A stretch of DNA of 64,000 bases from Blasia pusilla (GCA_050084515.1 CM114271.1:48980001-49044000); one strand, 5' to 3'. Positions 17,431-54,009 are shown, numbered from the stretch's first letter. Numbers and translations: made by a program. The notes: generated by a model not told the origin, from the letters alone.

Positions 17431-17712
17431 AGTCTTGGCATGGCCGAGCAGCGTCGACTTTGGACTATGTCTGTGGGTCTTCCACCCCTTGTGATGAGCT
17501 CGATGGCTACTGGGACGATAGAGGCATCGGCTGGGGGCGAGGAGAGTAGTATTTTGCATCCTTAGAGTAAATGGGATGTAATGGCTGGGCATGTGGAGTT
17601 GGTTGCTCATGCTTGTGGAGGAGTTATTTGCTCAGGTGATGGTGTAGCTAAGGGTGTGCTATCTTGTGAGGGGATTGCGTAGCAGCCAATTGAATCATCC
17701 TCTCTGTCTAGT

Positions 17713-19663: not shown

Positions 19664-20143
19664 TGTCACACCTGAGTAGCCGATAGGTCGAGATCTATCG
19701 TGGATAGGGCGTAGGAGCCAGCGGACTATCTTGAGTGTAACTTTGTCTCACGGTGTCGGATGAGGTTGAGGATAGGTCCACTATGTCAGGAACGTTGTTT
19801 CTGACAACTTTCATGTTGAGGTCTTTTACAATCGGGTGACTTGTTGACCAGGTCATCCGCCCCTGGTGACCTGTGCGCGCAAGTTACCAAGGGAAGGGCT
19901 TTTTTTAGGGGAAGAGCCTTTTGGCTCTTCCCAACCCTATATAAGAGAGGAAGATGGCTTTCCTAAGCCATCTTTCTCATGTTGGGCCGTTGGAGCACCT
20001 CCCTTGTATGTGTGTGAGCTAAGACTAGGGTGCTAGCGTCCGGATTCCTTGATAGCACAGGGTGGACAAGGCTCGATATGCCGATGTAGATTGAGGAGTG
20101 GAGTTTTAGGCCGGGTGTGCCGTTTTTACTACTCTTTATTTTT
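19664..20143 (+). repeat. 5' terminal segment (alpha) of copy C with TATA box and hairpin; PBS at 20144-20165
   Basis: TATATAA at 19938-19944; hairpin AAGATGGCTT-TCCT-AAGCCATCTT; perfect 22-nt inverted match between 19961-19982 and 20144-20165. Confidence 0.75.
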
Positions 20144-23100
20144 ACATGAGAAAGATGGCTTAGGATTGGTGGAAATTCGTTGTTTGCAGGTAGGCAAGCA
20201 AGTTGCCTTGGTCGGGAGCCCCTGGAGACGTGTGTGTGACGTTTTGTGTGTCATTAATCTGTTCGGAAGGCCGTGGGCGGAAGCGCTGTCCGTTTTTCTC
20301 AGATTTTGCAAAATCAGATGGGGGACAACAGCAAGGTGTAGAGCAGGTTGTGTCGGCAGGAGTAACGTCGTCTTATAGCTCGTGGAATGTCAGGAGTACC
20401 CAAGGAGAAGAGTTAGAGCTTGCAGCCGCCAGGGGGCTGTCAAGTAAAGCGTCCGGTCTAGGGTTAGGGCGCGGCGGCAACGGGCAGGAGCGGACGGGCG
20501 GCGACGGGCGCTGACGGGCGTGGAAGGGGGCGTGACGGGCGTGGACGGGCGCCCCCCTCCCTCCCTCTAACGTGGTAGAACGGACCATAGTCGGTCGGGG
20601 AGTTGTAGCGAACGTGGTTGGTAGGACGGACGAGGTTAGTCCGGCGAACGTGAGTTGAGATTTGCCCGACATGATTGGGAGCCGATCAGGGTGAGTCACG
20701 TTACATGCCGTGCGTGGGGATCGACAGAGGGGTTTGCGCGACATGATGTTTTTGGGGTGCGACAGGGCGTTGCGAGAGTTGACGATGGAGGGGCAGTGTG
20801 CATGATGTCGACGGGTTGTCCGCATCTATTGACGGGAGGATCGACGTGTTGGTCGAGGGGAGTGTTGTGTTGCGGAGATTGTCATATCATGTGGAGGAGT
20901 GCATGTTGACGGTGCAGCAGGTTGGAGGGCGTGATCAGGTTACCCATTCAAGTCCCTTTTCCCGCACTTGTCGTGTGTGATTGAGAGTGCTGGGTATCGG
21001 GTAGTAGCTGCTGCTAGATGGGTGTAGTGACGATGACGAGTGTAGATTCTTTTCATGTGTAGCATGTTGGAGGATATACGGCGGTTGCCGAGTAGGGGTC
21101 GCGTGTATGACCCGAGAGAGTGTCGCTAGGTTAGGTGAGTAAGTTGGGAGGCTCATGGTGAGCCCGAGTGTTGAGAGTGCGTGAGGCCGGGTATGTCATC
21201 ACGGGATTGATGTTAGCATAGGTGAGCTAGTGAGGCGTGTGGGAGACTCTCGGTGAGTCTGAGTGCTTGAGCGGGTGAGATAGGGTTTGTCATCACGGCA
21301 TTCTTCCAGGGTTCGGAAGAACGGGGTAGTGCGAGCAGTGGTAGTGGTGTGACACGGAGTGCAGTGAGATACCGAGGGGTTACCAATGAGGAGCTCCCTC
21401 GACATCCATCCGTGACTAGATCGTCATCACTGGACACTGGGTCTGGTGACGAGATCACCGACAGAGACAGTAGTACTTGGCAAGAGATGGACGACATGGG
21501 CCATCGGGGCATGCGTCGTTTCTCGGGTGCAGTGGGCACCATCGACTTAGATGATTTCATCCAGGAGTTTGACCATGGTGCGACTTCCAGGAGATACGGA
21601 CCCCGACACGGTTCAACCCTTTCATAGCATGGAAGGGGTTGTTCCAGCACTTGGAGGGTCCTCCGATGGATGACTACATGGAGTTTTGATCACTATATTC
21701 AGTAGAGATCGATGCTTGGAAGATGTATTGGGCTCTAGGGTATGTGTCCACTAGTGGTCGCGAGGCATATGATGGGATTGTGAGAGGAGAGAGACCCACA
21801 CCATCAGCCCGGAGACTAGATGGAGAGGAGGGCAGTGAGACAGGCGATGTGGCAGAGACCTCTGGTGGTAGAGGGCCACCCAGCTTCAGCCCCAGAGTGG
21901 AGTTCTTCCAACATTTGGGGAAGAGCTACCAGGGCGTACGCACCGACAAGCTGAAGAATCTACAGGATTTTCAGCGACGATCGGGTGAGAGTCTGAGAGA
22001 GGCATTCACACGCATGAGGAGGCTGATCATTGCTACGTTTGGAGTGATCGAGGCGATCGATCCTGTATTGAGTCTGGGATTCGGACCGAGAACTATGGAG
22101 GAGAGTCCGAGATGCAATGCTGATTCACACGGCGAAGCCCACATTGAAGGTGGTCTTTGAGTTGTCCGAGCGTATTGAGCTCAACATGAGTGAGGAGCAG
22201 GTAGTGACCGCTGGATTTTCTCGAGAGTCGACGGGTCCACGAGCGACGGTGACCCCACAGGTGCCACAGCGAGCACCAGTACCACGGGAGCGAGCAAGTG
22301 TGCCTAGAGAGCAGGGCGGGTACCGTGAGCCTATGAGGCAACGACCCGCACCTACATATGTTGCCCAACAAGGACCGATGTGGTCTTGTTGGACGTGTGG
22401 AGGGGCCCATAGGCACAGAGACTGCCCACAGCATGGGAGAGGACCACCAGCGCCTCCGATTGCTCAAGAGCCACAGAGGATGGCCCCACCACAGCACCAG
22501 TGTGACCATTGCCACAAATATGGTCACACTAGGGATAGATGTTTTGACCTTCGCCGAGGGGCACGTCCAGGTAGGCCGAGGGCCTGGGGGCGGTCGTCCT
22601 GGAGGAGGTCGAGGAGTTCTTCCTGGACGTGGTGGTAGAGGACCACCACCAGCCAGAGGAGATGGAGCAGGAGCACAAGAGCCGGCACTTCTCTCACCCA
22701 TCGATCAGTTGGAGCAGAGGATTGCTGGCATGACGATGATGTAGCTTAGGGAAGGCCCGGAGCTGCGAGCAGCTAGTGTGACTCCAGCTTCTACCTCTTA
22801 CCTTGACCCGGGTGAGGATCTCGCCAGTATGGGGTTTAAGTGTAGTGCAGCCTAGGTTGAGGCAGCTGCAGCGGTGACTTGGGGTGCTGCGAGAGGCACC
22901 GAGCCACCGAGAGGTGGAGTTGAGATTGACCCACCAGAGGGGACCGATGGGCGGTAGGCCAGGGTTCCACAGTCATTCACATTGTCGGAGGCACTACACA
23001 CACCATCAATGGTGCCTCGACGACCAGCGGTGCCTACATCTTAGGCACCTACGTCGACGTCATGAGGAGTTGGAGTGAAAACTCCTATGCCGGCTCGAGT

Positions 23101-28386: not shown

Positions 28387-28562
28387 CTGGAGTTGGGGGG
28401 ATCCAACTGCCAGCTAGGGGGGCGGTTGTGTGATCTCCATGTATATGTATGAGTTGATTTTTGTACATGTGTGGATCGACCCGTGTGCGGGGAAGATCGG
28501 TGTTGTGTGGTGTAGATGTGACCAGCGATGTATGTTGTGTAGCGATATGTATGCGCACGATA
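28387..28562 (+). repeat. Stem-loop, G-tract (PPT-like) and beta terminal segment of copy C
   Basis: CTGGAGTTGG...CCAACTGCCAG hairpin, AGGGGGG at 28416-28422, terminal CAGCGATGTATGTTGTGTAGCGATATGTATGCGCACGATA shared with copies D and E. Confidence 0.75.
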
Positions 28563-30254
28563 GCATCTACAGTTGGGGTTGTAGGAAGTAGAACTGTAGT
28601 AATAGGTGCGAAAAGGAAGCACAATGCTCTACATAACTGTTTAGTGGAGTACTATGCTGATTTCTCCTACAATACTGGATATCACAGCAAGCATCCGTAT
28701 TCAACAACATTGAAGGAAAGAATGTAGTTGGTAGGTGGATAGACAAACTTGAGGATAATTTCTTGTAGCATGGATCCTTAGGAGTTGTAGAAATGTGGGT
28801 AGAGTCCCTCTTGCAAAGAATCGATTGCCAATGTTGTTAGTTTGAAACGTGCAAAATTGCACCACCTTCAAGTTAAAGTTTTTCTAAAGCCATGGAAGTA
28901 TGTAGAACTGGGTTTTGAACAAGTCACAACATCTGAGTGGCAAAAGGCATGCCACGGAGCGACAATTACTTCTTGAATCAGACAGAAAATGAATTAGAGC
29001 AGCAAATGCCACAAGTTATGGATGCAAAAATGAGTTGGTGAATTAAGATTGCACCCGATAGGAGATCATATTAGCCACCTACGTGGACATGAAATGTTTT
29101 GAAGAGGTGCTCCGACCAATATGCACAGTCTCAACAGTAATCAAAGAGATTAGATGATAGAAACATAGTCTTAGGCTTTACATATTCTTATCTTTTGACC
29201 ATAGACTAGAGGAGGCTCTCAAGTAATCTCTATAATGCTCTAACTTTTGGTTGGTTGGTTTTCGAGGCAACATCAAACGCGGCACAAAGCAACACAAAAG
29301 GCTTGCAAACTACAATCCTAGTAGGAAGATAGACACAAAGAACACTAACCCAGGGCGAGTGCATAAGGATAGAAGAAGGTGCAAGCAATAAAGCTAGAAG
29401 ATACTAACCGCATTCGAGGGATAGCAAAGCAAGAACAACAAACGTGGCAATTGCATTTGAAGGGAATAGCAAAAGGAAGGCATGAACCTAAGTAGGTACG
29501 AGATAAATCTCCGCAAGTGTAAATGAGTGGAAACTAGACGGGGCACCTAGCAAAGAATAGACACGTCGCTAAGCAACGAGATGCTTTTGGGGACTAGAAT
29601 GCTAGTACATAGCAAGAGTCAATCACGTTATCTGAGGGGTGAGGAAGCAGAGTGCGAAATACTAGATTTGAGAGAAGAGAGGAACGAAGACGGAAAAGAA
29701 ATGCTAGTGTAGTATAAGGTGAACCAATCGTGTCTAGGTGAAAACTCTCCACCAACAACATCGAATTCTTCATCACACATGAGTTGAACAATTCCTGCCA
29801 AGATGGATGGAGGATCAATTGAGCGAGAGAGGAGAGGTATGAACGATCATCGACAATACCAAAGAGCACCAAGGGAAGAACGAACGAAGTGGCTCTGCTC
29901 GTGCGAGCAGAGCGTACTTGGGCTAGACATTCAAAACGTTGGCCGATGGTTGGGTCTAGTTGCCATCTCCTCACTATAGGCTAGAGATTGGCGATTATTT
30001 GAGCATTCATTGCAGCGGCCGAAGGGTATCCTCTGCTTAGAACCTTAGGAGACTCCGCATATGACTTGATGACACGTAGTGACAAACATGACATGGAGGG
30101 CCTACCCATGGAGAACGAAAATTTACGAGCCCCAAAGAGGTATATATGAGGAGACTTATTTGTAGAGGCTATTATGAGGATGGTGGATGAGAAGGATTTT
30201 CAATATGGGATGTGTATGCCCATCATATTGACACTTGTGAGATTGTCTTAAGCA

Positions 30255-30390
30255 GACATGTGAAGAAAGGATTGCACAAATACACATTGTAGAGAGGACA
30301 CTTAGGAGATTAAGACCTATAGTTAACATGTTTAGCTGCAGATGATCACTTTTTAGTCAATAGACACCATCGACATCATGTTTCTTGGTC
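30255..30390 (+). mobile_element. Very degenerate integrase remnant of the same family
   Basis: GTGAAGAAAGGATTGCACAAATAC...GAGAGGACACTTAGGAGATT resembles the VKRGLRKYGLQRGHLGDW coding sequence at 27616 and 48356. Confidence 0.5.
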
Positions 30391-31560: not shown

Positions 31561-34500
31561 CTATCTAAAATGCGTCTGGAATAGGGTGACCGTTGCTATG
31601 TGCCCGTTCTTCATGACCTATAAGACAGGTAAATAAGGTGGTTAATATCCTGTTCAAAACAGGTTCACTTTTGTTCATCAGTGTCTCACCAAGTTGCTCT
31701 TCTATTGAGATGTTAGAAGAATTGCAAGTAATGTTCGCCAGGAATCACCTCAAGGTTGTAAATCCTCACCTCAAGGGCAATATTTCTGTAACCATAAACA
31801 AAAGTTGGACCGAATGGATTGCTAACAGAACCCTGTGTTTGAATGGCAGCCCGACCGCCATCTCCCAATATCTCCTGGAGAACATGCCAAAGAGATATTA
31901 CAACATGGACTACCTAGATCAAAGAAATCATTTTGGGGTCCTGTTTGCTACTCTCAGAACTCCTGGTTTAAAAATCCTTAACTGGGAAATGTGAAAGTTA
32001 CAGAGAGTCAAATCCTCTTTAGAGCTATTTCTGCAATTGACAGGGACAGTTAAGACAGAAAGTTGCAAAAACAATCTTCTTACTCTCTTCTCATACTGAG
32101 CTAAAGACAACGGAGACGAGCAGAAGCTTAACCAATACCTGTACTTTGGACCACTTAGTAGTGGTCCAAAGTACAGGTCCTGTTTGCTACTCTCAGAACT
32201 CCTGGTTTAAAAATCCTTAACTGGGAAATGTGAAAGTTACAGAGAGTCAAATCCTCTTTAGAGCTATTTCTGCAATTGACAGGGACAGTTAAGACAGAAA
32301 GTTGCAAAAACAATCTTCTTACTCTCTTCTCATACTGAGCTAAAGACAACGGAGACGAGCAGAAGCTTAACCAATACCTGTACTTTGGACCACTTAGTAG
32401 TGGCTGTAATACAATGATGAACAGCATCTCCATTGGATACAATATTGGGTTCATCACCAACTTCACCTGCTATGGAGCACAACTTAGATGCAAATACCTG
32501 CTCTCCAACAATGTCATCACACAAACAATTCTGAAAAGGGCAATGGGTATATCATGTAAGTAATAGGACTCTTGATGTTCAACGTCTCTTACCAACTGGA
32601 CAATGTATGAAGAAATTGCACTTGATGTAGCAGTTGAAATCCGTGTGGCCAGGGAAGTTTGTATGCAGCACAAACTTCTTAATTCGATGACTCTTGAGGT
32701 TGAAGAACCACGAACAATTCAGTAGGTTGTCAGACAGCTACCAACACATGGCCTAGCAAACCCTATGAGCTTCCTTTGGAGAATTATTCAAATCATTTTG
32801 ATCAGGAAAGAAGTATGGACTAGTTCCTTGCAAATCCCCCTGATTGCACCAACAAAACAGCATGCTTCCAAGGTGAAGCATTCCATTACATATGCTAAGT
32901 TCAATTAATAATGTGAATCCATACTGGAACCAGATGAGGTGTCCCAAATGAATAATAGAAGCGCTTAAGAAAACTACCTGGCCATCAAAGAGGATATCCA
33001 AACCACGGGTGAAGTAGTTGTAAAAATAATCTCCACATAAGGCAGTTCGTGGTCTTGGGTCAGATGCAGAATGAATCACCATTGGATCAACCTGAAGGAA
33101 GGCACATGGATTCCATTGAGAGGATTGCTATCAACCATCCCAAAAATATGTTAACAGTAATTTATGGTTGAATGTATTTCTTTAGTAGAGTGCGATATTA
33201 GAAGTCATGAAGATAATCATGGGCATTCAGGACTAAACTCATTTGAAACTTGCTCAAAATGAGTGAGTGATGGTTGTCCAACACGACAGGTTTGATTTGA
33301 AAGATAATCTCAGATCTCTCTTGATAGATTGCTTCAGATTTATCTACACCACAAAACTGATGTCCCATACCTGCTTTTGATGTATGCCATCTGGTCGTCC
33401 AAGCGTTGCCCAAACATCCTGAGAAGTCAAGTTGAGTGTAAGTTATCAACGTCATCAAGAAGTATCTGTTGTACACTTACAAGATACATGACCAGGGAAC
33501 AGGTGAAGTTACCCCAAGGAATTATTTATACTGACCTGTGGAGATGCTCCGAAAGGTAACCGTCGTCCACCACTAAAACACAAATCTTCTGCTAGCTGCG
33601 TAATAAAGAGGAAATCATGTGAAATCTCTAGCTGTCAAGGTAATTAATTTCCCAGCCTTCATCAAGTATAAATGGGCACTAGTAAACTACAGGAAGGCTC
33701 TTGGACAGACATGATGAAATTAAGTACAGTTGATAGTAAGTTATCATAAATATATGTCTTACCATCCCAGAATCAAAGGCCATATTGCCATACGTCTAAA
33801 AGATTTCCATGGAAATCTTTTTAGACGTAGTAAGGAGGACTGTATGAGTTTTTGTGTCCCATGCTCTCTATGTTCAGGTAGTAAGCAGGATCTATAATTT
33901 GTTATCCTGCTTACTACCTGAACATAGAGAGCATGGGACACAAAAACTCATATAGTCCTCCTTAGGAGTGAAACTTCCAAAAGACAAATTTAAAACTCAT
34001 GAAGATTTGCAGCCATACCTTTGCATGCACTTCTTCCATATATGAGCTCCCTGATGCCAGCTGGGGAACTACTGCCTTCTTTAGCAGCCCTCCAACTCCC
34101 ACACCTCCTCCTGCTGTACTATCATAGATGCAAACTCGTGACATTACCGGGGTAGTGCCATCTGGAAACTCCAGCGGTAGCTCTGCTGCTGATCCACGAC
34201 AGACTTGTCATTCCAGTTTCAAATCATTAATTTTAAGTTATTGGGCTACAACTCTACAATCTATAAAGATGCTGGGAAAATACAAAGAATTGGAAACTCG
34301 AATCAGCTCCAACCTTCTCGATGCTGGCAGCATTCTGTGTACTGAGCAGGAATAGGAAATGCAAAGGATAGGCCCTGTCACAAAAATAAAAAATAAATAT
34401 TTAGTGAAGTGGCATCAAAGCACGCAAATCAAATGCTGGTTGAACAACAGAAGACTGCAATCACTTCAAAACCCAATGAATGGACATGAGGTCTGACCTT

Positions 34501-36656: not shown

Positions 36657-39600
36657 GTTCCCTAGTCCCACACAGCAAATCTCTTGTCCTCCTGTAATCT
36701 CTGCCGCCCCACCGTCCCCTCTGCCTCCTCTTGTGTCCCTCACCCTCTCCTCCCGACGCCAGCCCAATTATTTCTCCCTCCGTTCCCCGTCCTCTCCTTC
36801 CTTCCTTCCTTCCTTCTCTCTCTCCTCCTCCTCTTCGTCGTCGCTATTCACACGATGAAACGCTAAACCGGAAGCGTGGCGAGCCGGAATAGGCGTGAGA
36901 ACGAAAAGAGTCACCGTATGAACAGGAAACTCTCGCGCTGGCGAAGCACGAACGAACGAGCATACATTGGAACTGGCTGCAAAGATCAAACCCCACCTCC
37001 ATACGCCTGTCTGAAAGGCACCCTCTTCCACAAACCAACCGAACTCGCTGGGCGATAAACCCAGAATTGAACAATCCAACCGAACACGTCTTCCGAGCAA
37101 TGTCCGGGGAGATCCGGGGTTACGAGTAATCCCCGGGAAAAACTAAAATTCCCGTCTCGTGGAAACTGATGCCGGTGCAGATCAGGTGGTTTCCGTTAAC
37201 GCCGGCGTCTCTCACATGCCGGGATTGTGCCGATCGCCGGCAAGGATTGGATGGAAAGTAGTCGCGTACGGGGGAATACGGGGGTTAACGGCCGTTTAGA
37301 CGTAACCAGGAACCGGAAATCAACTGGGAAGGATTCCACTTGCCGGTCCTGCTAGGTGATTGGTTAGGGTATGGACGATGGCATGGGGGGCAAAGAGTCG
37401 TAGATCTGCAATAGGGCTTACCCTAAGCCATACGATGGAAGACCGGACGGGTAGGGTTTAGAGAGGGCGGCTGGGTTCAAGTGGAGAGAGGACGAGAAGG
37501 GTATGTGGGTGGAGACCTCACCATAGAGGGCTATCCCTCTCATTCTCGGATCTATGAGGGCCTTATTGCATGGGCTAGCGTCACTCATTGACGCTGGCCG
37601 GTGAGCGACGCCGTTAGACCGGATCTGCTTCATCCTACGGTCCCAAATGTGTTTCTTCTAATCCGAATCGCAAGTATTTGACGGGATCGCAACGTTTCAG
37701 TGTGACTATTTTCAGAGGTATGGTCATTCACGCGCGAGGTGTTTTAGTTTACACCCCGAATTACGTCCGGACTGAGGGCCAGAGAGGGCACCAGAGCGAG
37801 TAGCCGGTCTAGGTGGGCCTAGAGATCGTGCACCAAGTGGTCCTGTTGGGGGACGAGGAGATGGAGTTGCCCGACAGGGTGGTGGAGCTGCCCATGGAGG
37901 GGGTAGAGTCCCACCACCTAGACACATCGAGGGAGATGCCAGGCGTGAGGCTAGGATGGCTGCTTAGATACAACAACTACAAGAGTAGATTGCCGCTATG
38001 GCATTGAGGTTACCCGATGGCGGATCCGTGGCATTCACATGATATGGAGCAGCCACAGATATGGAGGATCCTGGTTGGATGTGCAGGGTTGCCCAGATGG
38101 AGGCCGCCGCAATTGTGACGCATGGAGCAGCCATAGAGTTGGATCCACAGCGAGGGGAAGCGAGGAAACATATCAAGCTTCCTTAGTCTTTCACATTGTC
38201 CTAGGCGATGAGGACCCCATTGATGGGTCCTGATTAGAGTTCCCGGAGAGTTGGTGATGTTATTGGTGTGTAGGCACGGAGGGTAATGAGAGAAACGAGT
38301 GCGATGACTCCTATTGCTGATGCTCAAGAGGAGCATGTGTCGAGTACGATATCGGGGGCGGCCACGATGGTGTACCGTGCTTCGCTATTTTCTGTTTTCG
38401 ATATTATGACATTGGGAGGTACGCCCGGCGAGGTGTTCCGGCTGGCCGCTACATTATGTGGGCGTGGAGTTGGAGTTCCTGCATCACATTCAGAGGTGAT
38501 TGTAGAGGAGGTGATGGACCTACCCTTGGAGCGGATGCTCAGGCCGTCCGCGTCAAATTCATGGCAGGCTACGACTGCTAGGATGGCGGAGATGTCCGCT
38601 AGACCCACGATAGAGCGTGCCATGGCTTCTCCTGGTGTTGTGTTGTTGGATAACCAGGGAGAGGTCTTCCAGTTGGTAAGTCCAAGAGGTAGAGCTTTTA
38701 GTCCGCAGCGCGTCTTGTTGGATTCAGGAGCGCAACCCCTGATGTTGGGGTAAGCGTCATTCAGAGGATTGGTCTTGACAAGAGCCGATGTGGAGCGTTG
38801 TCCATTCCGGATACAGACATCCTTGGGTGGAGCAAGTACCACATAGTATATCACCCGACACGAGGTCTTGGTGAGGATTCGCCTGAGATATCCTACAGAT
38901 GAGTCCGTGGTGCGAGCCAAGGCGATAGTGATTGATGTAGCGTCCTACAACGTCTTCGTTGGTGGAGCAGTGTTTTCCCTGGATTATTGGGAGGAGTCAA
39001 CGTCCTATAGACAAAGATGGCAGTTAGGTGATGGGCGCCTTATCTCATCATCTATTCGATTCACAAGTGCAATGATCGAGCGACGGCCAAGAGAGATGGT
39101 GACCTTTGCAGCATTTAGCAATGCCATCACTTGGCCTAGTGATTTGATTGAGGGACATGTCCATGTAGAGGATACTCCCATACTTGAAATTTCTATGGAG
39201 AGGAGTGTCATGGTACCTGCATCAGTCCGTGGAGAAGAGGTGCCGCTTTGGGGCTCGATTGAGGAGCTTCGACGCTTAGCCATTGAGCATGTGCAGACCG
39301 CGTGGAGCTAGACGTTTACACGAGAGTGTGACGAGTCAAAGGAACCCCAAGTAGTCATGTCTTGGGTCACGTGATGGACCTGAACCGCTTGACATGGATT
39401 TTCAGCTTAGGAGTAGCTGAGCAGCGTCATTTGAGGATGTGACAAATCACAACAGTTGCGTTGGTGAGCCCTATGCCTACCGAGACGGTTGAGGCAGTGG
39501 CTGGGGGCAAGACCTGAGGAGATTGACACTCCAAAGGTGATCGGGAGAGACTCCCTTGGACTTCTTGGGATGTTTTGCAGGTACGCCAAGGGATGATAGC

Positions 39601-40473
39601 CACACCATCGAGCGTGGTTCTGGGTACTACACATGGAGATCCAATTTTGCAATTGGCTGTAGGGGAGCAGACAAGTTTTGTTGTCCGAGACGGGGTTGCA
39701 CCATAGCAACCACCGACACCCGCACTAGAGAGTCCTACTGTAGTCACAATGGAGACTTGGGAGCCAAATATGGGCCCTAAGTTGACAAGAGGAGAGCGGC
39801 GTCAGATACACCAGTTCCTTAGGAGTTATAGGAGCTATTTTGCATTTAGTATGCATGATTTGTGTACGTTGAAGGGTCCAAGGATCCGCATTGAGTTTTC
39901 GAGTGACATATCGATGCCCGTCAAGAAGGATGTGATTGATGGATAGGCGGATGTGTGGAGATTACCGACGTATCAATTAGCAGACGAAGTCTGATGGGTA
40001 TGCCATGCCTATTCCTAAGGAGATCTTTGATGCTATTGGGAATGCAAAGGTCTTCAGTTCGTTAGATCTTCGAGCTGGATATAATCAACTGCCTATCAGA
40101 TTGGAGGACATGCAGAAGACAACATTTTGGGGCATCGATCCTTACAAGAAGGATTGCTTATACGAATGGCGGTTGTTACCATTTGGGTTAAAGAACGCCC
40201 GGGCTGAGTTTCAGAGGGTCATGATAGGATCTTGGCAAGTCTAGAGTTTGCTAGATGTTATATTGATGACATTGTAGTCTTTAGCGTCATGGTTGAGGAG
40301 CATGGGCGACATCTAGAGGAGGTATTTTGACGATTGCAGTTACATGGGCTGAAGCTACATCCAGGCAAGTGCAAGTTCTTCTACAACCAGATTGAGTACT
40401 TGGGTCATACGATATACCGAGGTGACCTTGGTGTGCAGTAGATAAAGGTAGAGGCTATTTCACACATTCCACG

Positions 40474-41231
40474 TGTCGTGCGCATACACATCGCTACACA
40501 ACATACATCGCTGTAACCGAACACACACACAAACATGCACGATCCCATGCTAACTCATGGCATCCAAACACAGAGACGAGAATTACCAAAATATCTCCAA
40601 TATAGTAAGATCCAATCTCTCTCTATACCATCTCACACCATAGCTCTCAAAGGTGTGCACTCTCTTTCATGTCAAACCAAACCCACTCTCCTAATGAGAG
40701 GCTTGGCTTACATTCACAAGGCAAGGGACTGTAGCTCCGCCATCTCATGCCAAGAGGTTCAACAAAGAAAGAATGAGCTCTCAAGCTCTCTCTCCTTTAG
40801 GTATACCCCTCCCCTCTCCCAAGCTCTCTCCATGGTAACCTATTCTCCCAAGTCACCTCCTTGGCTCTTGACCTGATGTAGGAGGTCAAGGGCCACTTAC
40901 CAAAAATACAATGGTGATCACATACTCAAATGGTACTTACCTAAAATAGTAAGTTTCTCAATATGACTCCAAATGAGCCGAACGTGCTCTCTCAGGTTTC
41001 CCGGGGCCTGAACAGGTCATCCTCAACCTACTGAGGCTCTCCTCCACTACTCACGAAGGCGCTCTACTAGATCTCACCGATCTATCCTAAAAGACGTGAC
41101 AGTTGTCGTGCACATACATATCGCTACACAACATATATCACTGTCACCGCACACACACACAAACACGCACGATCCCATGCTAACTCATGGCATCCAAACA
41201 CAGATGCGAGAAGTACCAAAATATCTCCAAT
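40474..41231 (-). repeat. 3' terminal beta1-alpha2-beta2 block of copy D (beta1 41231-41104, alpha2 41101-40602, beta2 40601-40474)
   Basis: Two ~128-bp direct repeats flank a ~500-bp segment that is repeated at 46366-46868. The beta1/alpha2 junction reads GACA-AC-TGTCAC; a G-tract precedes beta1. Confidence 0.92.
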
Positions 41232-44200
41232 CGTCCCCCTAGCTAGTGGTTAGGTCCCTCTAACTCCAGATAGCCATTTATCCCTATCTACCACGACATA
41301 CATCTCTAGAATGCTAAGAGTAGAAAGGCCGGGTGCTCATGTGGCCCCATCGTTAGTCGCCTTCATGTCATCCATGTCACAGAAATAGTCGGAATCGAAA
41401 CTTGCCTAGTATCTCCTCTATGTACATCAGGGACACATCCATCGTCCTCGAGGAACCTTAGTGAGAGGTGGCGTCAGACATGCCATATGCCAACCTCTTG
41501 AACATCCATCATAGACTAACATCGTGGCGCACCACAAGCAGAACCACACAACATACAACGCAAGCGTGCAGGAACTACTGGTGAGCTCGGATCTACTGTA
41601 CAATCAATGTTAGGAAGGTGACATGGCACACAATTACGCATATGGTCCTTCCATACCATACCATCGCGTCCCTCTAGCAAGAGAACATCGGATGGCCAAA
41701 CGTCACGCACTCTGAGGATAGTGCGCACTTCAGTCACATCCAACATCTTCGGTGCCGTCTGCTACAAGTAGGCATAATGTCCTTGATGAAACCTCCGGAT
41801 AGTTGGTCGATAACCACCACCCCGAATAGTTGCATACCTCAACGTATCCCAATGTTGCGCAATCGCCAAGTTCTCAAATGCCATGGGCATCACTCTCTGA
41901 AACAACTCCGCCCTCTGAGAACATGCTCGCATCCATACATCTCGATTATCAAGGTCCAACACCTCATCAGCATCCCGACGAATGGCCGTAGATAAATCTG
42001 GCTCTCGGCCATAAAGTAACAAGTACGGTGAAAAAGACGCTAAGGATGCTTGCCTGCTGAATCTGTATCCCATCGCCAACCATGGCAACTGGAGGTCCCA
42101 ATCTCCTATGTGACCTCTCTACAAGCCATACTTGCGTAAACCCCTCTTCATCGTATGCACAAATCTCTCCGCTAATCCATCTGCCTCGGGATGATCTCGC
42201 AAAGTCGTGCGGTGGTCGATCAACGCTTGATCACACAAGGCCTAGAACTCACTGCGAAACTCGATACCCTACTCTGTCAACACCTCAGCCGGTGCACCAT
42301 AATGACTCAGCACTCTATCAAGGAAGGCATAAGCTACTCCCTCACTCGCTTTGTCAGGAAATGCAACCAACTCGATCCACTTCAAGACTTGCTCGACCAT
42401 CACCAACACATAACAATGTGACGCTCCGTCAAAGGCAAAGGTCGGGCAGTCGTGGAGTCAGAGCATTGAATGATGCTTGGACCCGATCACACACCATGCA
42501 TCTGGCAACAAACTGCTGAACGTCAGTCTGCATGCCTCGCCAGCAATACTGAATCTAGAGCAAGTTGTACGTCCGCTTCACCCCAAAGTGATCTAACTCC
42601 TCGTGGGCATGCTACACAACTCATGCTCTCTGTAAAGGATGCGGCACTATGCGTACTCTACCATCCTCCCAAACCCTGAAAATATGTGTTCCCTCCCAAC
42701 GGAATCGTCTTGCCCGCTGTAGGATCCGATCCCGCTCTCTGGCACCCACGGTGCTCGCAACGCTACCAGTACGAAGGTACTCCAAGACTACTCCATCATC
42801 ATGAATATCTCGGCCACCTATGGTCTCCTCACTGGCCTCGGGATCCAAGGACTCTCCAGTAGACCTCGCCATCGAAGTCTCCACACTCTGGCTTTCCATA
42901 GCCAACATGCCTAAATAGGCTGACGCGTGCCATCCTGGCACTGACTCCTCATCACTCTCTCCATGCCATCGAGCTCTAGTCGCATCTCGCTGACTCGGGC
43001 ATGGGTTACAACTCAACCCATCTGCATCCTGGTTGAGCGTCCCAAGTCTATGTACCACCTCAAAATCATACTCCTGCAACAATGGAGCCCATCTCGCAAG
43101 CTTCCCTGTAAGCTTGTTGGACTCCATCAACCATTGAAGTGGTTGATGATCAGTGATGATTGTAAAGGGGTTACTGAATAAGTAACACCTGAAATGTGTG
43201 ACAGCCCACAGTGCAGCCAATCACTCACCCTCATACGAGCTATACTTCGCCTCTACACCATTGTTCGAGTGGCTAGCGTAAGCCACCACGAACTCTCTAC
43301 ACTCATCATCATGCTGGGTGAGCACCGCTCCAAGGCCCAACATGCTCCAATCTGTGTGCAACTGGAAAGGACGTCCCCTGATCGATCTCCTCAAGATGGG
43401 CGCAGACGTCAACTTGTCCTTGAGCAATTGAAATGCTCAAGGACAAGTTGTGATCCACTTATGATCCACCTTGGTCAGCAAGGTCAGCGGCTTCACAATC
43501 GAATTGAATCCCTTGACGTACCGCCGATAGAAGTTCGCCAATCCCATGAATGCGCAAACACGACTCACATCTATGGGGCGTGGAATGCATGAGATAGCCT
43601 CTACCTTTGTCTGCTGAACACCAAGGCCCCCTGGGTATATCGTATGACCCAAGTACTCAATCTGGTCGTAGAAGAACTTGCACTTGCGTGGATGTAGCTT
43701 CGGCCCATGTAATTGCAATCGTCGAAATACTTCTTCTAGATGTCGCTCATGCTCCTCAACCGTGGCGCTAAAGACTACGATGTCATTAATATAACACTTA
43801 TCAAAATCCAGACCAACCAAGATCCTATCCATGACACTCTGAAAATCAGCCGGGGCATTCTTTAACCCAAATGGTAACAACCGCCACTGATACAAATAAT
43901 CCTTCCCGTGAGGATAGATGCCCCAAAATGCCATCTTCTGCCTGTCCTCCAATCTGATAGGCAACTGATGGTATCCGGCTTGCAAATCCATGAATTGAAG
44001 ACCTTTGCGTGACCAATCGCATCAAAGATCTCCTCAAGGGTGGGCATGGCATACCTATCGGACTTCGTCTGCCGATTGATAGGTCGGTAATCCCCACACA
44101 TCCGTCTATCCGTCTAGTTGCCATGCACATCCTTCTTGGTAGGCATGACAGTGGCAGATGCATACTCCCCATGCGACATCTCCACTAGTCTTGCTCCAAC

Positions 44201-44789
44201 CAAGTCCTGGCTCCTACTGTGAATCAGAGCCCTCTCCATATCACTGTACCTGTAGGGTCGTCGGAAGATCGGCGTATCACTCGACAACTCAATGCGGATC
44301 CCCGGTCCCTTCAGCGTACCCAAATACTCCATGCTAAACACAAAGCAACTCCTATAATTCCTGAGGAATTGATGTATTCGGCGCCGCTCTCCTCTTGTCA
44401 ACTTAGGGCCCATATCTCGCTCCCAAGTCTCCATCGTGACTATGGTAGGACTCTCCGGTGGGGATATCGATGGTTGCTATGGTGCAACCCTGTCTCGAAC
44501 AACAACACTCGGCCGCTCTCCTACAGCAAAATGCAAACTCTGATCTTCTCCTTGTGTAGTGCTCGGAACCACGCACGATGCTGTGGCTATCATCTCCTGA
44601 CGTACTTGCAAAAAATCCTAAGAAGTCCAAGGGTGTCTCTCTTGATCTCCCCTGGTGTGTAGATCTCCTCGGGTCTCGCCCCCAGCCATTGCCTCCATTG
44701 TCTTGGTAGGCATGGGGCTCACCAACGCAACCGCTGTGATCTGTTGCGATCTCATCCGATGCTGCTCAGCCACTCCCAAGCTGAAGATC

Positions 44790-45740
44790 CATCTCAAACA
44801 GTTCAGGTCCATTGCCTCACCTAAGACATGGCGTCGTGAGGCCTCTAATACAGACGGTACTGCCGTCACTCCTATGGGAAATCCCATCGTCCGCTCTCTC
44901 TGGTCGGCGTTGGGCTCCACCAACCTCTGAAACTAGTCATCCCAAACCAAGCAAGGACCGGCCTCCTTGTATGCATAGGAAGCGGGAAAACTCACAAACG
45001 TGGGAAAGGTTGCCCGCGGCCTGCCTACCCTTTTGACCACAGTCAACGGTGGTTGATCATCGTGCCACATTGCATGTGAGCGATGATTTGGATCCAGAAT
45101 GGAATCCACTAACAAATGGGATGGGCACTCCACTCTCGCATGCGCCCTCCGTAACACCATATGGGGCACCAAGTTGGTCCACCATAGACGCGGGCGATGG
45201 GTTCTAGAACCTACACTCGCCGCATCCAAGAACACTGCTGGGCCAATCCAGGCACGCACCTGATGAGCACTCGTCACCACCCGTGATCTGGAGTCTCCTA
45301 AGATTGGCACATTCTCCAGAATGTAGGCTAGAGAACGAGAATGGTGCTGCTGCAATTGCCGTAAGATCCTCAACATCTCCCAAAACAACGTGGATCGAGT
45401 GTCAAACAACCCGCTGCCTCGTTTAGCACTCGGTTGGCCTTGATATGGCCAACCGGCAATGACCAAATCAATGGTGCCTAACCGCTCTAAGTCGTGCGCC
45501 CCCAACAACAAAATATCCCTCGGTAGGGAACTCTGGTACCCCTGTACTGCGGACGTAGACCATAAGTCGGGAAAACGTAGGCGTAATTGCGCCACATGTC
45601 ATAGTAGATACGCCTCGCAACATCAACACTCTCTACATATAGGTACTGCTGCACTCGCACTCCTGCCTGCGAAACAACAGCTAACCCGGTGCTAACCCTT
45701 CCAAAGAGATCCAACACTCGAATACCCTCCTCCGGGATAC
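44790..45740 (-). pseudogene. DNMT3-like domain of copy D (catalytic PC mutated to PY)
   Basis: IRVLDLFGRVSTG, DLVIAGWPYQG, YILENVP, SRTHRPRLWWTNL, RERTMGFP, RRHVLGEAMDL. Confidence 0.92.
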
Positions 45741-46365
45741 ACCACACAATGGGTCTTTGGTGAGTCTCGGAGGTAGAGCTTTTAGTCCGCAGCGCGTCTT
45801 GTTGGATTCAGGAGCGCAACCCCTAATGTTGGGGAAAGCGTCATTCATAGGATTGGGCTTGACGAGAGCCAATGTGGAGCGTTGTCCATTCCGGACACAG
45901 ACATCCTTGGGTGGAATGAGAACCACATAGTATATCACCCGACAGGAGGTCGTGGTGAGGATTCGCCTGGGACATCCTACAGATAAGTCCGTGGTGCGAG
46001 CCAAGGCGATAGTGACTGAAGAGTCCTACGACGTCTTGGTTGGTGGAGCACTATTATACCCAATGGGGTTTTCCTTGGATTACTGGGAGGAGTCAGCGTC
46101 CTACAGACCAAGATGGCAGTCAGGTGATGGGCGCCTTAGTTCATTATCCGTTCGATTCACATGTGCAGTGATCGAGCGACGGCTAGGAGAGATGGCGACC
46201 TTAGCAGCATTTAGCGGTGCCATTACTTGGCCTAGTGATTTGATTGAAGGACATGTCCATGCAGAGGATACTCCCGTTCTTGACATTTCTATGGAGAGGA
46301 GTGTTATGGTAGCCGCATCATTCCGTGGAGGAGAGGTGCCGTGGTGGGGCACCTCTCCTCTTTGT

Positions 46366-46868
46366 AAAGTAAGATCCAATCTCTCTCTACACCATAGCTC
46401 TCAAAGGTGTGCACTCTCTCTCATGTCAAAACAAACCCACTCTCCTAATGAGAGGCTTGGTTTACACTCACAAGGCAAGGGACCATAGCTCCGCCGCCTC
46501 ATGCCAAGAGGTTCAACAACGAGAGAATGAGCTTTCAAGCTCTCTCTCCTTTAGGTATACCCCTCCCCTCTCCCAAGCTCTCTCCATTGTAACCTATTCT
46601 CCCAAGTCACCTCCTTGGCTCTTAACATGATGTAGGAGGTCAAGGGCCACTTACCAAAAATAGAATGGTGATCACATACTCAAAATGGTAATGACCTAAA
46701 ATAGTTAGTTGCTCAATATGGCTCCAAATGAGCCGAAACGAAGGGGAAACCTGCTCTCTCATGTTTCTCGGGGCCTCAAAAGGTCATTCTCAACCTACTG
46801 AGGCTGTCTTCCACTACTCACGAAGGCGCTCTACTAGATCTCACCGATCTATACTAAAAGACGTGACA
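46366..46868 (-). repeat. 5' terminal alpha1 repeat of copy D (not followed by beta)
   Basis: High identity to 40602-41101. It continues into ACAAAGAG (start of the self-complementary PBS) rather than ATTGGAGATATT. Confidence 0.9.
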
Positions 46869-49242
46869 CATGCCCTATAGATGTGAGTCGAGTTCGTGCA
46901 TTCATGGGATTAGCAAACTTCTATCGACGGTACGCCAAGGGTTTCAGCTCGATTGCGGCGCCGCTGACCTTGCTGACCAAGGTGGATTAGGAGTGGCACT
47001 AGGGGGATGAGAAGGAGAGAGCATTTTAGATGCTCAAGGAAAGATTGACATCCGCGCCCATATTGAGGATACCGATCAGGGGCCATCCTTTCCAGTTGCA
47101 TATCGATTGGAGCATGTTGGAGCTTGGAGTTGTGCTCACCGAGCATGACGATGATGGTAGAGAGTTCGTGGTGGCTTACGCTAGTCACTCAAAAAATGCT
47201 GTAGAGGCAAAGTATAGCTCGTATGAGGGTGAGTGCTTGGCTAAAGTGTGGGTTGTCGCACATTTTAGATGTCATCTATTCGGCAATCCCTTTACCGTCA
47301 TTACTCATCATTAGCCACTTAAGTGGTTGATGGAGTCTGAAAAGCTTACAGGGAAGCTTGCGAGGTGGGCTCTTTTGTTGTAGGAGTATAACTTCTCGGT
47401 GGTGCATAGACTTGGGACGCTCAACCAAGATGTAAATGGTTTGAGCCGTAATCCATGCCCGAGTCAGCGAGATGTGACTGGAGCTCGTTGGCATAGTGAG
47501 AGTGATGAGGAGTTGGTGCCCAGATGGGATGCGTGAGCCTATTTGGGCTTGTAGGCTATGGAGAGCCAGATTTCTGAGACTTCGATGGCGAGGTCTGATG
47601 GAGAGTCCTTAGATCCAGAGGCCGGTGAGGAGACAACAGGTAGTCCTAGACATTCACGACGATGGAGTGGTCTTGGAGTACCTGCGTACTGGCAGCATCG
47701 CGAGTACAATGGGTGCTAGAGAGCAAGATCGGATCCTACAGCGAGCCAGACGGTTCCAGTGGGAGGGGACACATGTATTGCAAGTATAGGAGGATGGTAG
47801 AGTGCGTGTAGTGCCTCATCCTTTGTAGAGAGCACGTTTGGTGCGTCATGCCCATGAGGAGTTGGGTCATTTTGGAGTGAAGCGGACTTACAGTTTGCTC
47901 TAGATTTAGTATTGGTGGCAAGGCATGCAGACTGAAGTTCAGTAGTTTGTTGCCAGGTGCATGGTGTGTGATCAAGTTCGAGCATCATTCAATGCTCCAA
48001 CTCCACAGTTGCATCCACTTCCAATCATGGATTTAGGTTATAGATGGAGTTTGGATTTTGCAAGACCTTTGTCTTTGACAGAGCGCCATAGTCGCTATGT
48101 GTTGGTGATGGTTAAGCAATTCTCGAAGTGGATAGAGTTGGTTGCATTGCTTGACAAAGCAAGTTAGGGAGTAGCGTATGCCTTCCTTGATCGGGTTTTG
48201 AATCATTACGGCGCACTAGATGAGGTGTTGACAGACCAGGATACACAGTTCCATGAGAGTTTCATGCCGTGTATGATCAGACACTGATTCATCATCGCAC
48301 TACTTCGCGAGATCATCTAGAGGCAGATGGACTAGTGGAGCGGGTTGTGCAAATGGTGAAGAGAGGACTACGCAAGTATGGCTTGTAGAGAGGTCACCTA
48401 GGAGATTGGTACCTCCAATTTCCGTGGTTGGCGATGGGATAGAGATTCAGCAAGCAGGCATCCTTAGCGTCTTTCTCACTATACTTGCTTTTGTATGGCC
48501 GAGAGCCAGATTTACCTATGGCCATTCATCGAGATGTTGGTGAGGTGTTGAACCTTGATAACCTTGATGTATGGATGAGAGCATGTTCTCAGAGGGCTGA
48601 GTTGTTTTGGAGAGTAATGCCCATGGCGTTTGAGAACTTGGCGATTGCGCAACATTGGGATACATTGAGGTATGCGACTATTCAGAGGTTTTATTAGGAA
48701 GACTATGTCTACTTGCAGCACACGACATCCATGACCTTGGATGTCACTGTAGGGCGCACCACCTTGAGAGTGCGTGAGGTTTTGCCATCGGGTGTTCTCT
48801 TATTGGAGGGACGCAATGGTATGGTTTGGAAGGACCATGTGCGTAACTATGCGCCATGTCATCTTCCAAACATTGACAATATAGTTGATCCGAGCTTAGC
48901 AATAGTTCCTACTGGCTTGCGATGTATGTTGTGTGGTTTTGCGCGTGGTGCAGCCACTATACGAGTTTGTGATGGATGTTTGAGAGGATGGTATATGGCA
49001 TGTTTGACGCCACCTCTCACTAGGGTTCCTCAAGGACGATGGATGTGTCCCAAATGTACATAGCATAGGTAGTTCTTCATTCTAACTTGTGTCTGTGATA
49101 TGGATGACAAGAAGGCAACTAACAATGGGGCCACATGAGCACCCGACCTTCTTGCTCTTAACGTCCGAGAGATGTATGTCATGGTAGGTAGAGATAGATG
49201 GCTATCTGGAGTTAGAGGGATCTAACCACCAACTAGGGGGTG

Positions 49243-50015
49243 ATTAAAGATATTTTAGTACTTCTTGTCTCGTTGTTTGGATGCCATAAGTTAGCACGGG
49301 ATCGTGCGTGTTTGTGTGTATGTTTGATGACAACGATGTATGTTGTGTAGCGATGTGTATGCGTACGACACCTCTCATATCTTTTAGAATAGATCGGTGA
49401 GATCTAGTAGAGCGCCTTCTCGAGTAGTGGAGGACAAGCTTAGGGGGTCGAGGATGACTTGTTGAGGCCCCGGGAAACCTGAGAGAGCAGGTTTCCCTTT
49501 TGTTTCGGCTCATTTGGAGTCATATTGAGGAACTTACTATTTTAGGTAAGTGTCATTTTGAGTATATGGTCAACTTTGTATTTTTGGTAAGTGTCCCTTG
49601 ACCTCCTACATCAGGTCAAGAGCCAAGGAGGTGACTTGGGAGCATATGTTACCATGGAGAGAGCTTGGGAGAGGAGAGGGGTATACCTCAAGGAGAGAGA
49701 GCTTGAGAGCTCATCCTCTCTTTGTTGAACCACTTGGCACGAGGCGGCGGAGCTATGGTCCCTTGCCTTGTGAGTGTAACCCAAGCCTCTCATTACGAGA
49801 GTGGGTTTGGTTTGACATTGAGAGAGACATGTGAGAGTGCACACATGTGAGAACTATGGTGTTGTGAGAGAGATTGGATATTCTTTTATTGGAGATATGT
49901 TGGTACTTCTTGTCTCGTTGTTTGGATGCCATAAGTTAGCATGAGATCGTGCGTGTTTGTGTTTGTGTTCGGTGATAGCGATGTATGTTGTGTAGCGATG
50001 TGTATGCGCACTATA
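49243..50015 (+). repeat. 3' terminal beta1-alpha2-beta2 block of copy E (49243-49370, 49373-49887, 49888-50015)
   Basis: Same organisation and sequence family as 40474-41231. Junction GACA-CC-TCTCATATC (decayed TGTCACGTC); AGGGGG at 49235-49240. Confidence 0.9.
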
Positions 50016-53047: not shown

Positions 53048-54009
53048 AAGTAGGAAAGAGAAGAAGAGCGCTCAGGTGAGCCTTTTGCTCTTATCGTGTA
53101 GTAAAAAGACCACTGCCCTAGTCTTAGCTTGGCTAAGACCTCTAGGGTTCAAGCAAGCTAGGAGCTACCCCAAGGTTGCACACGAACATGTCCGTGCGGA
53201 CCCGCGTACCCGCGGTCCGCACTCGAGCCCGTAGCCTGGCCTAGGGTGGGCTCGGGTGTGGTGCGGGCTCAACGCCCACCTTGTGAGCCCTTGAGCCTGC
53301 GCCTGCCCACTCCAAGCCCGCATCTGCCTGCTTGGAACTTGCACCGGCCGTCCAGAGCCCGTGCCTACCCACCTAGAGCCCACACCTACCACCCTGAGCT
53401 CGCACCTGGAGGCCGCACCTGCCCGTTCGAGCCCGCACGTGCCCGCATGAAGCCCGGACCTGCCCGTTCAGAGCCCGCGCCCAATTAGCCCTCAACCCGC
53501 ACTTGCCGGCCCCAAGCTTGCACCTACCCAGCTAGAGCCCGCACCTGCCCTCCCTAGCTCATGCGCAATCAACCCTGAGCCCGCGCGTGCCCTCCTAAGC
53601 CCGCGCACAATCATTCCTAAGCCCGCGCTTGCCCGTCCCAAGCCTGCACCTGCCCGCCACGAGTCTGACCCACACGTGCTCACTTGGAACCCGCACTTGG
53701 CTTCCCGGAGCCCGCACATGCCCACCCTAGCATGCACCTACCTTCCTCGAGCCCGCACCTTCCCCGCCGTGAGCTCGCCCTTTGGGCCATGCAATGGGTG
53801 CGGGCTCTATCAACCCAAGTCTAGATGGCGGGCTCCAAGGCAGGCTCGGATGCGGACTAGGGTGCGGGCCGGGCATGTCCGAGGACTTGTCTGGACTTGT
53901 CTGACCGGACATGTTTGTCCCATGGATGGACTTGTCCATTTCCGTGCAACCTTGAGCTACCCTATAAGAGCAAAAGGTTCACTAGAGCGCTCTTCTTATC
54001 TTTCCTACT
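53048..54009. repeat. Older ~47-bp inverted repeat pair (hairpin or MITE) interrupted by the hAT element
   Basis: 53048-53094 AAGTAGGAAAGAGAAGAAGAGCGCTC...CTTTTGCTCTTAT is the near reverse complement of 53964-54009. Confidence 0.7.
53171..53954. mobile_element. Non-autonomous hAT-type DNA transposon (MITE), 784 bp, GC-rich
   Basis: 11-bp TIR CAAGGTTGCAC / GTGCAACCTTG; perfect 8-bp TSD AGCTACCC (53163-53170, 53955-53962); many internal GAGCCCGCAC-like repeats. Confidence 0.9.

Follow-up and report, generated by a model that had tools for sequence, protein, structure and literature searches.

A Ty3/gypsy-type retrotransposon family in Blasia pusilla with permuted terminal repeats and a candidate integrase site inside its reverse-transcribed repeat

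The 64,000-nucleotide stretch of Blasia pusilla DNA analysed here (GCA_050084515.1, CM114271.1:48980001-49044000; hereafter the window, with positions counted from its first letter) holds five copies of one retroelement family, which we call A, B, C, D and E (Table 1). As read from Pfam scans of open stretches and from translations, the family encodes a zinc knuckle in gag, a protease marked by the motif DSGA, a C5 cytosine methylase (PF00145), a reverse transcriptase (RT), a Ty3-type RNase H, and an integrase with an H2C2 finger, the D, D and E residues of the rve core and a C-terminal PHD finger; the frames are broken in every window copy. The ends of these elements are built from two blocks, alpha and beta, arranged in the most complete copies as alpha1-internal-beta1-alpha2-beta2. 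We present evidence that this inserted form is circularly permuted with respect to the DNA that reverse transcription would produce, and that a circular or end-joined complementary DNA (cDNA) opened by the integrase is the best reading of its anatomy, a reading that we hold with moderate confidence.

Element D, nested within E (which reads ATTCCACG[D]CATGCCCTATAG around it), has the alpha-internal-beta-alpha-beta layout that an initial annotation of this sequence had described. Its first letters are TGTCACG and its last CACGACA, with identities of 90-91% between alpha1 and alpha2 and 92% between beta1 and beta2. The same annotation had proposed a 4-bp target duplication, CACG/CATG, and the empty paralogous sites within D and C agree: they run uninterrupted as ATTCCACGCCC(C/T)ATAG, and the duplication at D is therefore 4 bp, CACG. 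The accompanying account of the 5' end stands in part: alpha is the only repeat there and the start of the primer-binding site adjoins it, but the end is not intact, as about 13 nt after alpha1, within the primer-binding site, the sequence passes into the inverted protease segment, and D carries no gag. With its 5' side rearranged in this way, D alone is no guide to an intact 5' end; 47 DNA contigs run past the alpha end (place 40604, the end of alpha2) into TTACAAAGAG, the letters that follow alpha1 in D. The inversion breakpoint lies inside a near-perfect hairpin (GGAGAGGTGCC-7 nt-GGCACCTCTCC), and the arrangement may go back either to an error during reverse transcription, by fold-back, or to an inversion at a later time. 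A tblastn match that extended protease homology into alpha1 (to 46446) was rejected as an alignment tail without real similarity.

Two other copies have readable 3' ends. Element E ends beta1-alpha2-beta2, as had been described, and its 5' alpha was not found in the window. Element C, inserted within the integrase of B, begins with alpha (first letters TGTCACG) and ends in a single beta; both features of the earlier description are present, but the 3' boundary is ambiguous by 10 nt. The 5' flank of C, CAGTTGG (19641-19647), is repeated at 28571-28577, 10 nt past a D-type beta end (CACGATA at 28566), so that the duplication is not a clean 4 bp, and either 10 extra 3' bases or a longer duplication must be allowed for. 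Beyond C, B apparently resumes (28578-30336), far more AT-rich and diverged than before the insertion, and only short integrase matches (30261-30336) are found there.

Table 1. Positions of the retroelement copies, their parts and other repeats in the window.
Feature	Position	Strand	Remarks
Element A	8217-11631	+	Partial copy, gag-protease-methylase region
Element B	~13533-19647	+	gag to integrase; split by C
Element C	19648-~28566	+	alpha...single beta; nested in B
C, TATATAAG	19938-19945	+	
C, primer stretch	19961-19982	+	
C, primer-binding site	20144-20165	+	
C, G-run	28414-28422	+	3' end
C, single beta	~28426-28566	+	3' end
Element E, left part	37689-40473	+	gag zinc knuckle, protease, RT start; interrupted by D
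D target duplication, left copy	40470-40473	+	CACG
Element D, full insertion unit	40474-46868	-	alpha1-internal-beta1-alpha2-beta2, TG...CA ends
D beta2	40474-40601	-	Precise join to alpha2 end
D alpha2	40602-41101	-	Pile of RNA fragment ends at 40744
D internal candidate integrase site	41096-41109	-	CACGACA-AC-TGTCACG (beta end, spacer, alpha start)
D spacer	41102-41103	-	AC, 2 nt
D beta1	41104-41231	-	128 bp, ends GACA
D polypurine-type G-run CTAGGGGGACGA	41232-41243	-	Directly before beta1; G-run 41239-41235
D C-terminal PHD finger	41430-41603	-	Motif read from translation
D DDE integrase	41765-42554	-	Zinc-finger CxxC; D, D, E fragments; broken frames; rve fragment E 0.0011
D RT and RNase H	42624-44476	-	Broken frames; RVT_1 4.5e-23, RT_RNaseH_2 5.8e-18, RT_RNaseH 9.4e-15
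D Dnmt3-like C5 cytosine methylase fragment	44936-45598	-	PF00145, E 6.8e-6, 26.2 bits (cut-off 22)
D protease segment	45757-46350	+	594 bp, DSGA motif; opposite in orientation to the remainder of D
D putative self-priming primer-binding site remnant ACAAAGAGGAGAGG	46351-46365	-	Adjoins alpha1
D alpha1	46366-46868	-	503 bp, sole 5' repeat; TATA-like box; primer-like stretch ~46531-46517
D target duplication, right copy	46869-46872		CATG; one CpG-to-TpG change
Element E, right part	46869-50015	+	RT-RNase H-integrase-PHD
E G-run	49233-49240	+	3' end
E beta1	49243-49370	+	3' end; followed by spacer CC
E alpha2	49373-49887	+	3' end
E beta2	49888-50015	+	3' end
228-bp direct repeat	31937-32164 and 32176-32403		100% identical
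Tandem array, ~21-bp units (CCCAAGCCTGCACCTGCCC)	53290-53764		10 copies of a 40-nt register, 60-83% identity

Thirteen full-length relatives were aligned, and the alignment was used to gather 80 metagenome loci, which we examined by self-comparison and by probing with the alpha, beta and leader sequences of two subfamilies. Loci with identical flanks were merged before counting (L027 = L028, L035 = L055, L040 = L041, L047 = L048, L049 = L050, L066 = L070, L071 = L072 and L076 = L077). After merging, a beta-alpha-beta 3' end is carried by 13 distinct insertions, six of which also have alpha1 on the locus, and a single beta followed by unrelated flank by 13, with alpha1 on the locus in three. 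The 5' ends are uniform: flank, alpha and then the leader with its primer-binding site in all 13 distinct metagenome insertions that show this end, and in 15/15 with D and C added, while none of these 15 ends (13 metagenome, D and C) has alpha-beta-alpha or alpha-beta-leader. Every copy with both ends, nine from metagenomes plus D, is flanked by a 4-bp target duplication, perfect in seven cases (L026 GGTC, L036 TCTC, L072 TGAC, L037 CCAC, L029 CATC, L074 TGTG, L066 ATGG) and with one mismatch in three (L028, L077 and D). The duplication lies outside beta2 in 7/7 complete beta-alpha-beta copies, and the inserted ends are TG at the alpha start and CA at the beta end. The initial annotation had taken exactly these to be the integrated ends, had expected both the alpha...beta and the alpha...beta-alpha-beta forms to occur with 4-bp duplications, and had held that intact copies with a complete alpha-plus-beta repeat on the 5' side would speak against the permutation; the integrated ends are borne out by D and the nine metagenome copies, both forms were found, and the 5' repeat of that kind appeared at 0/15 ends.

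Some of the metagenome loci have peculiarities of their own. In L066 (3674-4063, equal to 5463-5852 of L070) the first 85 nt of alpha are duplicated before the full alpha, with the perfect ATGG outside the partial copy. In L055 (4741-5251) alpha and leader stand inverted about 4.7 kb upstream of the coding region and the expected alpha1 is missing; the cause is either a neighbouring element in head-to-head orientation or an inversion resembling the one in D. L007 and L008 were tried as outgroups with ordinary long terminal repeats (LTRs) and set aside, since the same GTGACA-GC-TGTCATG site is present in them; both have a short beta of about 62 bp after the G-run and belong to a more distant lineage. 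L008 also contains a 3.5-kb repeat (286-3803 and 9133-12650, 99.9% identity, period 8847 bp), for which a tandem pair, circularity of the molecule and faulty assembly are all possible explanations.

Two junctions lie within the 3' repeats, and they differ in precision. At the beta1/alpha2 boundary, GACA-NN-TGTC, exactly 2 nt separate CA from TG in 15 of 16 distinct copies (spacers AC, GC, AT, GT and CC), the exception being L050, which has a deletion there; no intact site departs from the 2-nt spacer, and the TG and CA dinucleotides stand at this boundary as had been claimed from the window. The alpha2/beta2 joint, by comparison, is imprecise in 9/15 copies. It is precise in six (D, E, L026, L028, L039, L041), offset by -2 in four (L068, L072, L080, L079), and takes a different form in each of the remainder: +1 in L055, +6 in L059, +17 in L036, -8/+1 in L077 and -150 in L037, whose beta2 is reduced to its terminal 29 nt, beside a perfect duplication. 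The variable junction predicted from the window thus takes seven states over 15 copies. Among six aligned copies, 3 of 11 indel events fall at the joint, whereas the other 8 events, spread over ~2990 columns, lead one to expect about 0.1 there (Poisson P ~2e-4, by our own arithmetic). The outer end of beta2 is fixed, always at the CA of a conserved CACGACA motif. A joint that would lie outside the RNA, would not be needed for function and is often imprecise looks like an end-to-end ligation made anew in each cycle. In L039 (9999-10160), beta2 ends at the inner copy of a tandem terminal motif (GTCACGACA), 14 nt short of the beta1 end, as a result either of the integrase using either motif copy or of a 14-nt slippage deletion. 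Joints at alpha copies in DNA contigs (listed rows) were judged uninformative, being switches between homologous alpha copies.

The positions of the two primers bear on which DNA unit is reverse transcribed. In every row listed, 16 with beta-alpha-beta and 10 with a single beta, a G-run adjoins beta1, as it does in C, D and E, so that the earlier placement of a polypurine-like tract before beta1 and not before alpha2 holds throughout. On the 5' side, the first bases past alpha1 show complementarity to part of alpha, a stretch that begins 23-32 nt after a TATA box. In L026-type elements, 12 nt (11 in L028) pair without gaps, G:U allowed, in 7/9 copies, and the partner is alpha 165-176, which begins 32 nt after the TATA box at 133; L050 has a different 11-nt pair in the same place. 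In C, all 22 nt of the site pair perfectly with the primer stretch, which begins 23 nt after TATATAAG, and the region has a folding z-score of -5.1, with 0/200 shuffles folding as well. Pairing of 11-22 nt at the expected place is found in 8/13 metagenome 5' ends and in C, and the occurrence of three different sequence pairs at one position amounts to family-level covariation. A site of the tRNA type was considered and dropped in favour of self-complementarity, as no listed sequence after alpha1 begins with TGG, the expected start of a tRNA-complementary site. Self-priming of the Tf1 type has been predicted for Tcn1 and for Tf1/Sushi elements (Neumann et al. 2019, PMC6317226), and the complementarity here points to Tf1-like priming of the minus strand by the 5' end of the RNA. 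Transcription would then start in alpha, U5 would end where alpha ends, and the plus strand would start at beta. With the primer-binding site after alpha1 and the G-run before beta1, the reverse-transcribed LTR should be beta+alpha and the linear cDNA [beta-alpha]-internal-[beta-alpha]; the initial annotation had proposed this LTR, and the positions of the G-run and of the self-complementary site across many copies support it.

Two RNA runs with the same species label gave 4272 and 4665 aligned reads, nearly all of them 88-95% alike to the window copies and so derived from other family members. The reads are sense-oriented over D and E, and their orientation flips in the inverted protease segment of D. 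Depth drops within alpha2 of D and of E, and 31 RNA fragment ends fall at 40744 (alpha2 position 358), about 19 nt past the primer-like stretch, which fits an RNA ending inside alpha2, before the alpha2/beta2 joint. No transcription start appears among the listed RNA results. From DNA and from RNA alike, the sequence of the reads becomes heterogeneous beyond the alpha start (41101), as expected if the alpha start is the usual edge of the element. The expressed relatives are about 90% identical to the coding region of D and have a different 3' untranslated region and an L036-like beta (loose ends at 41231 and 41267), which indicates a distinct transcribed subfamily in the organism; because the expressed copies carry a different beta, low RNA depth in beta2 says little.

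The elements are Ty3/gypsy-type LTR retrotransposons, probably of the streptophyte lineage named "streptophytes (Gypsy-DNMT3)" in a preprint (bioRxiv 10.64898/2026.05.21.726589). A Ty3-type RNase H follows RT, a DDE integrase with an HHCC zinc finger follows RNase H, and the insertions have TG...CA ends and a short target duplication. What they lack is a pair of identical bounding LTRs: the complete beta+alpha unit, from polypurine tract to primer-binding site, occurs once only, on the 3' side. Besides the matches of D, the integrase of C was recovered with Integrase_H2C2 at 5.7e-6 and rve at 4.7e-6, the rve matches in window copies being fragments below the Pfam cut-off, and Pfam PHD matches were obtained in the E and C copies. 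The integrase C-terminus gave no chromodomain match and has the PHD finger in its place. A metagenome relative, L026, has the same domain order as the window copies (methylase-RT-RNase H-H2C2-rve-PHD) and gives rve 48.5 bits (cut-off 32.6), H2C2 6.2e-9 and PF00145 37.8 bits. Among solved structures, its RT is nearest to Ty3 RT (4ol8, E 4.7e-62) and its methylase to DNMT3A (E 6e-7); the core of the integrase has matches in the Ty3 integrase region (E 2.6e-10) and in the integrases of foamy viruses.

Relatives were sought with the most intact open reading frame (ORF) of B (18088-19512), a 474-residue RT-RNase H. Among the 120 matches listed, the closest named ones are two Marchantia polymorpha proteins (76% and 64% identity), followed by Klebsormidium nitens, Closterium and Chara proteins at about 40-50%; in pairwise comparison, K. 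nitens proteins that combine rve with PF00145 are 41-44% identical to the window RT-RNase H. The best named relatives being those of M. polymorpha, the window family would represent a liverwort-side branch. A tyrosine recombinase, the other finding that the initial annotation had named as fatal to its proposal, was not found: PF00589 is missing from the precomputed domains of the 120 relatives listed, and no such ORF is among the eight longest of L026, a scan to which short ORFs and the 5' leader of C did not belong. The methylase module apparently occupies two positions in related elements, between RNase H and integrase in the consensus of 13 aligned proteins, and ahead of RT in the window copies and L026.

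With the cDNA bounded as predicted, its ends cannot give rise to the inserted structure, which means that recognition by the integrase must be internal and that joining of the cDNA ends is required. We therefore favour, from sequence comparison, the following cycle. Alpha would hold the transcription start, about 25-32 nt past the TATA box; folding back on the site after alpha1, the 5'-terminal 11-22 nt of the transcript would prime the minus strand, as in Tf1, and the G-run before beta1 would prime the plus strand. The resulting linear cDNA would have termini that are not TG/CA. The DDE integrase would ignore these ends and act at the palindromic GACA-NN-TGTC within the LTR, at the beta/alpha boundary, nicking after CA on both strands with a 2-nt stagger. 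Both ends so formed would carry a recessed CA-3'OH and a 5' overhang of 2 nt, the form that DDE integrases use. The right end of the cDNA (the alpha end) would be joined to its left end (the beta start) before or soon after cleavage, by either of two routes: a circle with two LTRs (2-LTR circle) might be opened at the site next to the primer-binding site, or the beta stub cut at the left site might stay in the integrase complex until host end joining sealed it again to the alpha end. The 4-bp duplication would then follow from insertion. The alpha...beta form may come from an opened 1-LTR circle, from a linear cDNA cleaved at its two sites, or from beta1/beta2 recombination afterwards, origins among which the target duplications do not discriminate; with no 3' R, this form should not replicate.

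Several observations weigh against this cycle. Random opening of a 2-LTR circle predicts the mirror product alpha-beta-alpha-internal-beta, which was seen at 0/15 5' ends; either the process is directional or such products collapse fast by alpha/alpha recombination. End-to-end template switching of the reverse transcriptase is one of several other ways in which the joint may arise. All copies are old (alpha1 and alpha2 are 84-92% alike), and some indels at the joint may postdate insertion, while three of the four -2 joints (L068, L080, L072) belong to L026-type elements and could be inherited, the fourth (L079) being of the L036 type. Primer pairing is only 5-7 nt long in 5/13 metagenome 5' ends, the RNA reads listed include no poly(A) tails, and the pile at 40744 may be an alignment edge. 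Metagenome contigs of repeats are also prone to mis-assembly, though here the matching duplications argue otherwise. One alternative has no closed circle at all: the left site of the linear cDNA is cut, the body and a beta stub of 120-180 bp, held in one complex by the integrase, are inserted together, and host end joining seals the alpha end to the stub once both are in the chromosome. This accounts for the same anatomy and the imprecise joint, the surviving terminal 29 nt of beta2 in L037 fit protection by the integrase complex, and a natural left/right asymmetry, which follows from the left site being nearer the DNA end, fits the absence of mirror products. A preference for the left site is still required, however, and by sequence the two routes look the same; we know of no precedent for insertion of this kind and regard it as rather unlikely.

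Less likely again is a DIRS-like replication with a borrowed integrase, in which the RNA would run from alpha1 into beta2, the beta1/alpha2 boundary would serve to restore the ends in the manner of a DIRS internal complementary region, and the joint would be copied from the parent. The A1-internal-B1-A2-B2 order is the split-direct-repeat layout described for Ngaro/PAT elements (PMC8969392, PMC7192593), de Mendoza et al. (2018) drew the same comparison, and the three -2 joints in related copies could be read in this way. It would, however, make superfluous a full canonical priming set, with the primer-binding site at alpha1 and the G-run at beta1, that predicts a beta+alpha LTR; the joint varies in seven ways among close relatives, RNA depth drops inside alpha2, and the elements have 4-bp duplications and a DDE integrase, with no tyrosine recombinase found. 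Two further accounts are already contradicted. If alpha alone were an ordinary LTR, beta1 would be 3' untranslated sequence and beta2 a secondary duplication or rearrangement after insertion; alpha does start with TG, hold the TATA box and precede the primer-binding site, and the L026-type alpha ends in CAAT, that is, CA plus 2 nt. Yet the duplication lies outside beta2 and not at the alpha2 end in all seven complete copies, the same rearrangement would be needed in 13 metagenome insertions, D and E, across subfamilies whose alpha sequences have little in common, and neither the constant CACGACA end of beta2 nor a G-run before beta1 instead of alpha2 is expected, which makes this account highly improbable. 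The least credible of all is that the true LTR is alpha+beta (TG...CA), the copies seen having lost their 5' beta: taken together, alpha2 and beta2 do open with TG, close with CA and carry short inverted termini, but beta follows alpha at 0/15 5' ends, where the primer-binding site adjoins alpha, and beta1 after the G-run is left unexplained. Whether the preferred reading, with the integrase site moved inside the LTR and joined-ends cDNA as the obligatory substrate, extends to the whole DDE-integrase lineage (charophytes, liverworts and the metagenome relatives) seems to us an evenly balanced question.

Textbooks give linear cDNA with LTR ends as the substrate of every retroviral-type integrase, and circles are treated as dead ends; circles were reportedly proposed by Panganiban and Temin as the precursor of retroviral integration. 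The initial annotation knew of no description of the present combination, which was too strong a statement: KnitGypsy-Dnmt3 of K. nitens is given DIRS-like repeats and Gypsy domains in the legend to Fig. 4c of de Mendoza et al. 2018 (PMC5890265), and both its Gypsy-type pol with a Dnmt3-like methylase and its A-coding-B-A-B repeats recur here. The bare repeat pattern is thus already in print; the observation made on the window is confirmed and generalises to a wide lineage. The text of that paper, supplements aside, mentions no target duplications, primer sites, internal integrase site or mechanism, and in the parts of the literature searched we found no other description of split repeats with Gypsy and integrase, nor of a mechanism. 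Ngaro/PAT elements of the DIRS order, as presented in the accounts cited above, share the A1-internal-B1-A2-B2 termini and an implied joined-ends intermediate, but have a tyrosine recombinase and no target duplication, in contrast to the DDE integrase, 4-bp duplications, TG/CA ends and Ty3-type RT/RNase H of the window family. Tf1/sushi and Tcn1 elements, whose self-priming is treated in PMC6317226, resemble it in an RNA 5' end complementary to the site after U5 (predicted here) and in the lack of a tRNA-type site, and differ in having ordinary identical LTRs and a chromodomain where the window family has permuted termini and a PHD finger at the integrase C-terminus. The integrases of PFV and HIV-1 are reported to cut the palindromic LTR-LTR junction of 2-LTR circles (PMC1180852, PMC1905944, PMC4372172), a likeness that would comprise a DDE integrase, an internal palindromic CA...TG junction and insertable ends, were the cleavage proposed here to occur. 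In the retroviruses the site is the ligated U5/U3 junction and the pathway is minor or disputed, whereas in the window family the candidate site lies inside the reverse-transcribed LTR, and under an opened circular or end-joined cDNA the permuted product would be the only replicating form.

If the reading is confirmed, it also holds a practical warning for annotation: LTR-finding programs built to expect two identical flanking repeats will misplace the boundaries of elements of this kind. If the integrase does act on joined cDNA ends, the family would be a natural working version of the circle-junction integration model that was abandoned for retroviruses, and a convergent route to the split direct repeats of tyrosine-recombinase elements with no tyrosine recombinase needed; once confirmed, it would offer a natural system for studying integrase action at internal palindromic junctions. 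Because the family carries a Dnmt3-like methylase and a PHD finger, its life cycle also bears on the interaction between transposons and host chromatin.

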